64,000 nucleotides of DNA, taken from UHGV virus genome UHGV-0211740; one strand, given 5' to 3'. Position numbers and translations under genes: made by a program. The stretch's first letter is position 1; every line of letters begins with the position of its first letter. The DNA is from a virus. This document shows positions 12,027 to 12,223 of this stretch, one piece after another. The notes under the pieces are model-generated. The model searched no databases and was not told where the DNA came from. It saw only the letters and a program-made list of their open reading frames with translations.

Positions 12027-12124
12027 GATCGTGGATCATGAAATTAAGCGAGCGCCGGAAGCAGAACCGGATTAACAAATGTTACAGTCGTCATCGCCGA
12101 CTAGCAGCATGATCCACATAATAT

Positions 12125-12223
12125 GCTAGGTAAGCCCTTTGGCAAGGGCGAGGATTTTTAATCCTGAAAATAGACGAAGCAGTCGTTGAATACATAGGTG
12201 GTTCGATTCCATCGCCTAGCACC
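12125..12223 (+). tRNA. aberrant tRNA-like element (possibly Lys-TTT-like; may be a pseudo-tRNA)
   Basis: Acceptor GCTAGGT/GCCTAGC, D arm GCCC-TTTGGCAA-GGGC, T arm GGTGG-TTCGATT-CCATC are tRNA-like, but the anticodon region AGGATTTTTAATCCT folds as 5 bp with 5-nt loop (or 4 bp with loop TTTTTAA) and about 30 nt with a second hairpin sit before the T arm. Confidence 0.4.

Follow-up and report, generated by a model that had tools for sequence, protein, structure and literature searches.

The tRNA genes of bacteriophages are now viewed as counter-measures to tRNA-cleaving immunity. AriB of PARIS recognises the anticodon stem-loop and a tRNA-Lys variant of phage T5 defeats PARIS (PMC11464382), and anticodon-loop changes in phage tRNAs have been proposed as a means of nuclease evasion (PMC10264068). 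Phage tRNA clusters can also hold small RNAs located directly after a tRNA gene, such as RNAC and RNAD of phage T4 (species 1 and 2 RNAs), whose roles are unknown (PMC3014915, PMC9697503), and prophage leaders contain small RNA (sRNA) modules such as STnc100 (RF02076), AgvB and PasD, the latter being found near Q in lambdoid prophages (bioRxiv 10.64898/2026.05.13.724894). Here, we consider positions 12027-12223 of a 64,000-nucleotide (nt) stretch of the virus genome UHGV-0211740 (the window), an interval lying between the tRNA-Ser and tRNA-Thr genes of a tRNA cluster. Comparative analysis shows that it contains two independent, conserved and predicted non-coding RNA genes oriented as the cluster: element X (12031-12117), closed by a long inverted repeat, and element B (12125-12223), shaped like a tRNA. 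B appears to be a tRNA-like RNA of a new variety, and X a so far undescribed phage RNA motif; literature searches for the elements or their sequences, for tRNA-like RNAs of rV5 and the Vequintavirinae, and for the STnc100 and Pas sRNAs gave no description of either.

The window is a segment of a Vequintavirus (rV5-like) phage genome, and its 971-nt tRNA region is 93% identical to that of rV5 and relatives. At least 80% of the whole tRNA cluster is spanned by 114 phage records, and the X and B interval is likewise covered over at least 80% in 114 records. ARAGORN calls six + strand tRNAs, namely Arg(UCU), Tyr, Ser(UGA), Thr(UGU), Met(CAU) and Pro(UGG), and leaves 12027-12228 of the window without a call. 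An earlier note on this DNA had described in this interval an aberrant tRNA-like element, possibly a degenerate or insertion-bearing tRNA, a decoy or processing element or a small structured RNA, and a long inverted repeat. The structures that it had recognized are real; a degenerate tRNA is not supported.

Element B, a tRNA-shaped RNA with a non-canonical anticodon arm

A cloverleaf, an odd anticodon hairpin and about 30 extra nucleotides with a second hairpin had been read in B by the earlier note, and all of them are found where it had placed them:

12125-12223, + strand: B, tRNA-shaped RNA (Rfam tRNA score, family covariance model, covariation in 25 sequences)
12125-12131 and 12214-12220, + strand: acceptor stem, GCTAGGT / GCCTAGC, 7 base pairs (bp) including one G·U
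12132-12133, + strand: A8 and A9 (read directly)
12134-12137 and 12146-12149, + strand: D arm, GCCC / GGGC with loop TTTGGCAA, extendable to 6 bp with a 4-nt loop
12150, + strand: single G between the D arm and the anticodon-like arm (read directly)
12151-12165, + strand: anticodon-like hairpin, AGGA/TTTTTAA/TCCT, 4 bp and a 7-nt loop, reading UUU
12166-12196, + strand: extra region of 31 nt, with G 12166, linker AAAAUA, a hairpin and linker GAAUACAUA (12188-12196)
12173-12187, + strand: 5-bp hairpin of the extra region, GACGA-AGCAG-TCGTT (read directly)
12197-12201 and 12209-12213, + strand: T arm, GGTGG / CCATC with loop TTCGATT (read directly)

The hairpin at 12151-12165 can alternatively be drawn as AGGAT/TTTTA/ATCCT, with 5 bp and a 5-nt loop; in neither drawing does B have the canonical anticodon arm made of a 5-bp stem and a 7-nt loop with U33. 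The variable region of tRNAs measures 4-5 nt in class I and up to about 21 nt in class II, and that of B exceeds the limits of both classes, its length being 31 nt in this phage and 38-40 nt in relatives. At the 3' end, the discriminator A73 (12221) is followed by CC (12222-12223) and then by T, with no encoded CCA, whereas CCA is encoded by all six neighbouring tRNAs. The Rfam tRNA model (RF00005) assigns B 29.4 bits (E = 0.0007), marginally above its gathering score of 29, in an alignment that includes a 26-nt insertion. B is absent from the matches of the whole-window Rfam run at gathering scores, and ARAGORN, one of the programs suggested in the earlier note, returned no tRNA for B in the window. 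The rV5-type allele is called 'tRNA-???(atcc)' by the same program. The sequence folds with a z-score of -3.36 and none of 200 shuffles folds equally well.

Regarding its distribution, the B family comprises 28 distinct sequences collected from phage GenBank, IMG/VR and metagenome scans, of which 25 were aligned. Its members always adjoin a tRNA gene; they occur in each of the sampled genera of the Vequintavirinae, in Justusliebigvirus and on large contigs of uncultured origin. In Avunavirus, Henunavirus, Mydovirus, Seunavirus and Justusliebigvirus, B lies directly 3' of another tRNA and X is absent; a sensitive BLAST search with 12020-12230 matches B of an Avunavirus (92% identity), whereas the 5' part corresponding to X is not matched there. 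A family covariance model (R1) scores the members of the family at 98-120 bits (101 for the window copy) and ordinary tRNAs at 31 bits at most, while divergent copies in large tRNA-array contigs reach about 45 bits. A search with a 23-nt D-arm pattern gave two matches, both due to chance and located in unrelated coding DNA.

Covariance comparison with related tRNA clusters, as the earlier note had proposed, supports all four arms of B across the 25 sequences. In the cloverleaf, 97.5% of the cells are paired (acceptor 100%, D arm 98%, T arm 98%) with both-side changes in 15 of the 21 pairs, compared to 31-44% paired cells in slid alignments and far lower values in every shuffle as well. Moreover, the tertiary pair G19:C56 is replaced by U19:A56 in seven Mydovirus-type sequences, from which we argue that B is truly L-shaped. 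Relative to rV5, B is 97% identical, the tRNAs 94-100% and the spacers 57-88%, and the three differences in B fall in the extra-arm loop and in one wobble pair. With a non-canonical architecture kept by compensatory changes across several genera, and with an identity to rV5 well above that of the spacers, the idea of a degenerate or decayed tRNA has to be abandoned; none of the relatives carries an ordinary tRNA at the position of B.

B shares with canonical and class II tRNAs (RF00005) a 7-bp acceptor stem, a D arm with GG, a UUCGAUU T loop, the G19:C56 pair, a tRNA neighbourhood and, in most relatives, an encoded CCA. It differs from them by A8/U14 instead of U8/A14, by a variable region of 31-40 nt with long conserved single-stranded linkers, and by an anticodon arm which in 25 of 25 sequences has 15-16 nt (4 bp and 7 nt, or 5 bp and 6 nt) instead of 17, between invariant G..G flanks. 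The loop is UUUUUAA, UUUAUAA, YAUCAAA, UAUCGAA/UAUCGCA or one of the 6-nt types CAUCCA, CAGCCA, CUUCCA and CCUCCA, so that the triplet is not conserved; U33 is missing from most members, and A33 and C33 occur. In every member the extra arm forms a hairpin; it has 3-8 bp, is made of unrelated sequences and stands between conserved A-rich linkers, GAAAA.. and ..AAAUACAUA. All the motifs of the family are present in the window, i.e., A8, the UUUGKYAA D loop, the short arm with G..G flanks, the GAAAA linker, the extra hairpin, the AAUAC linker and the T arm. Most relatives encode U73-CCA, the window copy having A73-CC-U, and across the family the discriminator follows the loop triplet (UUU/A73, UCG/A73, UCC/U73). 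Where B is of the UCC type in Seunavirus and Mydovirus, the phages possess canonical tRNA-Gly(tcc) and tRNA-Lys(ttt) as well, and ARAGORN makes no call for B in the Seunavirus or Mydovirus loci.

Other known RNAs were compared with B. As in tRNA-Sec (RF01852), the D arm can be drawn with 6 bp and a 4-nt loop, the extra arm is long and many family members have a UCA triplet; however, B has 7+5 bp rather than 8+5, its discriminator is U or A and not G, the window copy reads UUU, and RF00005 scored above RF01852. Models of tRNA-Sec, YrlA and transfer-messenger RNA (tmRNA) do not fit B, the YrlA / Y RNA-like model (RF02553) giving no more than 15-25 bits where its gathering score is 69, with matches that cover the T arms of neighbouring tRNAs. 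Like T4 RNAC and RNAD, B is a small RNA that immediately follows a tRNA gene within the tRNA cluster of a phage, and RNAC has a T-arm-like GGUUCGAAUCC. The T4 RNAs are nevertheless longer (139 and 119 nt), are devoid of the B cloverleaf and have no detectable homology to B: R1 finds no match to them at 1909-2172 of the T4 locus (L307), and T4 tRNA-Leu and tRNA-Thr alone score, at 24-26 bits.

Database labels for B are inconsistent and include none (rV5), Lys, tRNA-OTHER, tRNA-???(atcc), TERM and sup(tca). Annotation pipelines, which currently call it Lys, 'OTHER' or 'TERM' or leave it out, thereby misrepresent the set of tRNAs that these phages encode.

Several additional observations were made around B. 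The tRNA directly upstream of B in Mydovirus and Seunavirus (L173 3313-3387; L140 2598-2672; L136 328-403) has an abnormal anticodon loop. It is either a 6-nt ACGAUA, for which ARAGORN reports 'tRNA-???(ga)', or an AAGAUUC that has A33, and these phages therefore have two neighbouring non-canonical tRNA-like genes. Two B-type RNAs per locus occur on L167, an 866-kb metagenomic contig (5031-5137 and 7004-7112), as well as on L172 and L151; on such very large contigs, the paired copies sit within repeated Val/Gly/Arg/Met tRNA arrays. Beside the B copies of L167, a gene with RRXRR and HNH domains (IscB-like) is found at 7632-8930, among proteins without Pfam match. Finally, a terminator scan flags 12134-12159 (D arm of B and the U-run of its loop) and 12195-12228 (T-arm/acceptor hairpin followed by UUUUU at 12224-12228). 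Both sites are consensus matches alone; the hairpin and U-run 3' of B could weakly terminate or pause transcription before tRNA-Thr.

Element X, a conserved RNA common to lambda and P7

X is a predicted 87-nt three-way-junction RNA with a nearly invariant core, and its features in the window are the following:

12031-12040, + strand: 5' arm of closing helix P1, GTGGATCATG (RNA GUGGAUCAUG), a perfect 10-bp complement of the 3' arm
12041-12107, + strand: core of X (BLAST homology, covariance model R2, covariation of P3)
within the core, + strand: junction J1/2, AAAUUAAGCGAGCG
12048-12051 with 12094-12097, + strand: possible pseudoknot, GCGA with UCGC (candidate; invariant)
12055-12058 and 12067-12070, + strand: helix P2, CCGG/CCGG with loop AAGCAGAA (invariant)
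within the core, + strand: junction J2/3, AUUAACAAAUGUU
12086-12090 and 12098-12102, + strand: helix P3, AGUCG/CGACU with loop UCAUCGC (covariation)
12108-12117, + strand: 3' arm of P1, CATGATCCAC (RNA CAUGAUCCAC), 67 nt from the 5' arm

The 10-bp inverted repeat at 12031-12040/12108-12117, already noticed earlier, is 100% complementary. It is not an adjunct of the tRNA-like element; it closes a separate RNA, and the 67 nt that had been described as an insert are the conserved part common to lambda and P7. A helix of the length of P1 arises between the flanks of X in 0.4% of shuffles (p = 0.004), and X folds with a z-score of -3.20. B and the inverted repeat both exceed chance, the comparative evidence being stronger than the fold statistics, and the proposal of a small structured RNA holds for this lineage.

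The core of X matches lambda, HK630, P7, D6 and a Salmonella siphovirus (ST1UNAM) at about 84-89% (blastn), all of them without B. Over 62 nt, it follows the nearly invariant consensus AAUUAAGCGA-NNN-CCGG-AAGCAGAA-CCGG-AU..CAAAUG..-(A)GKCG-UCAUCGC-CGMC(Y)-AGC, with an identity of about 85-93% among lambda, P7, the Salmonella siphovirus and rV5-like phages, and the covariance model R2 scores X at 97 bits and finds it as a single copy in the window. Compared to rV5, identity amounts to 93% in the core and to 70-80% in the P1 arms, where the changes compensate each other. P1 reads GUGGAUCAUG/CAUGAUCCAC in the window, UGUUGACCUUGU/ACAUGGUCAACA in rV5, GUUGUGCUG/CAGCACAAC in lambda and UGUGGUG/CACCACA in a lambda variant, and it is a helix of 14-15 bp with U·G wobbles in P7 and ST1UNAM; in total, at least 6 unrelated sequence types maintain it. 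MAFFT alignments A4 and A6 mis-register the P1 arms, and P1 was tested on alignment A5 and by per-sequence helix tests. Changes on both sides were found in 7 of 8 pairs, and 91% of the cells are paired versus 22-45% in slid alignments, even with four rows mis-registered by MAFFT. In P3, one G-C pair becomes U-A in 5 of 17 X sequences. As the U·G wobbles of P1 would turn into A·C mismatches if the opposite strand were transcribed, the functional molecule is best understood as an RNA made from the + strand.

The homologues of X all belong to enterobacterial phages and resemble each other too closely for a full covariation analysis. In lambda, X occupies about 44857-44941, between orf-64 and the lysis genes (late leader), and it carries no annotation in the 426 of 5,426 complete RefSeq E. 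coli genomes that hold it. An Rfam 15 cmscan of the + strand of 12031-12117 gave no match at E <= 10, nor did the lambda, P7 and ST1UNAM copies, and X is therefore not a known Rfam family, only the neighbouring module of P7 resembling STnc100. A looser genome-wide pattern for X returned mostly chance matches, among which the covariance model filter left lambda-identical ones and a few others (Enterobacter, L204), with no new diversity.

One gene neighbour of X is shared between the window and P7:

11937-12026, + strand: tRNA-Ser(UGA), class II, G73 and CCA (ARAGORN), directly upstream of X

P7 has an unannotated tRNA-Ser(tga), homologous to this one, directly upstream of X (L007 1890-1976, i.e., AF503408 72257-72343), which suggests that tRNA-Ser and X move as one unit. 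The lambdoid copies of X have no tRNA nearby, and a tie of X to tRNAs in general was hence rejected.

Like the prophage leader modules STnc100, PasD and AgvB, X resides in untranslated phage leader arrays. An STnc100-like module (43 bits, gathering score 47) directly follows X in P7, and X in lambda has a closing stem of the same type, GUUGUGNUG/CANCACAAC. The X core is unrelated to the STnc100 consensus, except for a short UAAGCG..CGGAA.CAG resemblance seen by eye, and the likeness to HK022 put, a two-hairpin cis antiterminator RNA, is one of context alone. A boxA-like motif, AGUGCUCUU(U/A)CCGUUGUGNUGAA, was observed ahead of hairpin-closed RNA modules in P7 (L007 1440-2210), lambda (L006, about 1470-1500) and ST1UNAM (L008 1850-2220). 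These modules have GUUGUG.../...CACAAC stems and contain as cargo X, an STnc100-like RNA or, in ST1UNAM, a tRNA-like D-arm/T-arm piece; they look like arrays of untranslated phage RNAs. In addition, X copies with the exact lambda score (109.6 bits) appear in assemblies of Pseudomonas, Psychrobacter, Algoriphagus, Oceanobacillus, Segatella and other taxa, often on tiny contigs (L199, L201, L220, L223, L228, L249, L252, L265 and others). The presence of lambda-identical copies in unrelated taxa is probably due to contamination by phage lambda control DNA.

Possible roles of B and X

In the window, the loop of B with its two closing pairs (GAUUUUUAAUC) is identical to E. coli lysT (GACUUUUAAUC) at 10 of 11 positions (30-40), and A73 is found in both. 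The distal anticodon stem differs from that of lysT, including at position 41, beside the cut site of PARIS AriB (40/41). The 'Lys-like' label proposed in the earlier note is thereby justified in this lineage, but not for the family, in which UUUAUAA, YAUCAAA, UAUCGAA and 6-nt CAUCCA loops are found. T5 tRNA-Lys is a close parallel, as a phage RNA of the Lys(UUU) type with a stem unlike that of the host at and near the AriB cleavage site and with an anti-defence pressure acting on tRNA-Lys (PMC11464382); it is nonetheless canonical and functional, whereas in B the anticodon arm is shortened and a large extra arm is present. Three genes adjacent to each other, about 3.4-5.4 kb upstream of the tRNA cluster, are also relevant:

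6713-7669, - strand: RNA ligase 1 (Rnl1, PF09511; family match)
7629-8159, + strand: P-loop kinase (AAA_33; family match)
8167-8721, + strand: calcineurin-like metallophosphoesterase (family match)

They compose a T4-like RNA-repair set, of a split Pnkp-plus-Rnl1-like organization, such as T4 uses against PrrC. Together with the sequence evidence, this nearby cassette supports a tRNA-Lys theme for Vequintavirus and not for the family as a whole.

We favour, with a probability of about 0.45, a joint reading in which B would be a tRNA-Lys mimic, acting as a decoy or a nuclease-resistant surrogate, and X an autonomous factor-binding RNA domain. Because B retains three arms of a tRNA (acceptor, D and T) as well as the elbow pair, it should fold as an L and would be excised like a tRNA by RNase P and 3' trimming. 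It would then offer a loop similar to that of E. coli tRNA-Lys(UUU), together with A73, on a scaffold ill-suited to decoding, and might engage the factors that read the tRNA-Lys anticodon stem-loop, chiefly host anticodon nucleases of the PrrC, PARIS and RloC type. As a competitive decoy or a nuclease-resistant surrogate, it would act beside the phage Rnl1, kinase and phosphoesterase RNA-repair genes, and the same scaffold would display other loops in other genera. X would fold on its own, insulated by P1, and its invariant loops and junctions would serve to bind some factor that enterobacteria have in common, X being more than a mere spacer.

A number of points weigh against this reading. The Lys-like loop is found only in Vequintavirus, and the match to lysT at 10 of 11 positions partly reflects pairs that are invariant across the B family. 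Loop variability could equally reflect relaxed constraint, the replacement of G19:C56 by U19:A56 may be one event in a single lineage, and a decoy is stoichiometrically demanding. B is moreover the sole Lys-type species of the window phage, the other tRNAs of which mostly read A-ending codons, and this fits a real decoder. For X, the cores of the homologues are nearly identical, so that P2 and the pseudoknot have no covariation support, and recent horizontal transfer could inflate its apparent conservation. The contexts of X also differ (tRNA operon, lambda late leader, tail-gene gap) and have no common partner gene.

A serious though less probable rival is that B is a genuine, aminoacylatable tRNA-Lys(UUU) with a class-II-like body, which would decode AAA and supplement the host pool or replace cleaved host tRNA-Lys, for which T5 tRNA-Lys provides a precedent. 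B reaches the Rfam tRNA gathering score and its UUUUUAA loop, with U33, U34-U36 and A37/A38, comes with A73, features which we take to agree with the identity elements of lysyl-tRNA synthetase (LysRS). The absence of any other tRNA-Lys from the cluster, in which the remaining six tRNAs are mostly for A-ending codons, and a discriminator that tracks the loop triplet across the family are the reasons why this rival has to be taken seriously. It is opposed by the 4-bp anticodon stem with G·G flanks and the 31-nt variable region, by the silence of ARAGORN, by a CCA left unencoded in the window copy unlike in its six neighbours, and by a family in which the arm is never canonical (15-16 nt, 6-nt loops, U33 mostly missing, A33 or C33) and the triplet varies by genus. 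B is besides found together with canonical tRNAs of the same triplet, and a role as Gly or Lys decoder in Seunavirus and Mydovirus was rejected as redundant with the canonical tRNAs of these phages. Far less credible is a functionless B, as a decaying pseudogene or a tRNA disrupted by an insertion. Its non-canonical features, its marginal Rfam score and its inconsistent database labels would suit a pseudogene, but compensatory changes uphold the four arms and the extra arm in several genera, substitutions relative to rV5 (97% identity) are confined to a loop and one wobble pair, and B is kept in 114 of the 114 records spanning the interval. Going beyond the favoured reading, the B family as a whole might be a programmable tRNA-mimic scaffold with a non-decodable, lineage-specific loop titrating or misleading anticodon-directed immune nucleases (PrrC, PARIS and RloC for the window copy), while X would be a second anti-host or regulatory RNA, common to lambda and P1, with a compact pseudoknotted fold; we regard this broader proposal as rather speculative.

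Regarding X, it could instead be a cis-acting element of the untranslated transcript, either a processing or insulating hairpin serving tRNA maturation or transcript stability, or an element that would keep RNA polymerase elongating across untranslated RNA, which we consider doubtful. X is always preceded by a phage promoter and placed in a leader or operon that is untranslated and rich in structure, and a second long hairpin in the Tyr-Ser spacer of the window suggests processing signals in the tRNA cluster. In P7, lambda and ST1UNAM, X is flanked by a repeated boxA-like motif, AGUGCUCUU(U/A)CCGUUGUG, presumably akin to the boxA of rrn and nut; however, this motif is missing from the rV5-type copies. 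The 62-nt near-invariant core and the invariant loops would be superfluous in a simple hairpin, the lambdoid copies have no tRNA nearby, and lambda already possesses Q-dependent antitermination. X is not an intrinsic terminator either, since P1 is followed by AUAAUAUG, without a U-tract, and the terminator scan lists none at X. It is very improbable that the interval encodes a small basic peptide or corresponds to a DNA-level site for recombination or binding. In the window, an uninterrupted 24-codon frame spans X exactly (ATG at 12038 to TGA at 12110-12112), and the inverted repeat might, in principle, serve as a palindrome to which a protein binds. Yet, the frame reads TTG TAA in rV5 and is shifted by a 1-nt indel inside the conserved core of the lambda/P7 group, and the substitutions are compensatory in helices rather than codon-like, so that a conserved small open reading frame was discarded. 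A DNA palindrome was rejected for its strand-specific wobbles: being A·C mismatches on the other strand, they indicate that evolution has preserved neither a symmetry of the DNA strands nor a cruciform.

Should the favoured reading be true, B would add an RNA-mimic layer to the tRNA-nuclease conflict, across a subfamily of coliphages that are therapeutic candidates and close to RNA-repair genes. X, for its part, is a structured, covarying RNA element of the lambda late leader and of the P1/P7 tRNA-ban operon that is absent from Rfam and RefSeq annotation, and it would represent a new conserved RNA in the best-studied phages.

Transcription of the locus and further observations

One promoter-like site stands upstream of the tRNA cluster:

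11573-11601, + strand: sigma-70-type promoter-like site, TTGACA-17-TAATAT, 10/12 matches

Its rV5 counterpart is annotated 'P(tRNA)'. We infer that X and B are co-transcribed with the tRNA cluster, and the transcript carrying them presumably starts at this site.

The Tyr-Ser spacer (11826-11936) contains a hairpin of ~26 bp, with arms at 11842-11871 and 11904-11933 that are 80% complementary. In contig L143, two changes that compensate each other (GAC to GGU, GUC to ACC) preserve the hairpin, which is possibly a third structured element or else a processing site of the RNase III type. Finally, ~19 GenBank records labelled 'Campylobacter phage' (MG065635-MG065682) have an rV5-type tRNA cluster with 90-93% identity; their resemblance to Vequintavirus genomes suggests that the hosts are mislabelled or that the records are contaminants.

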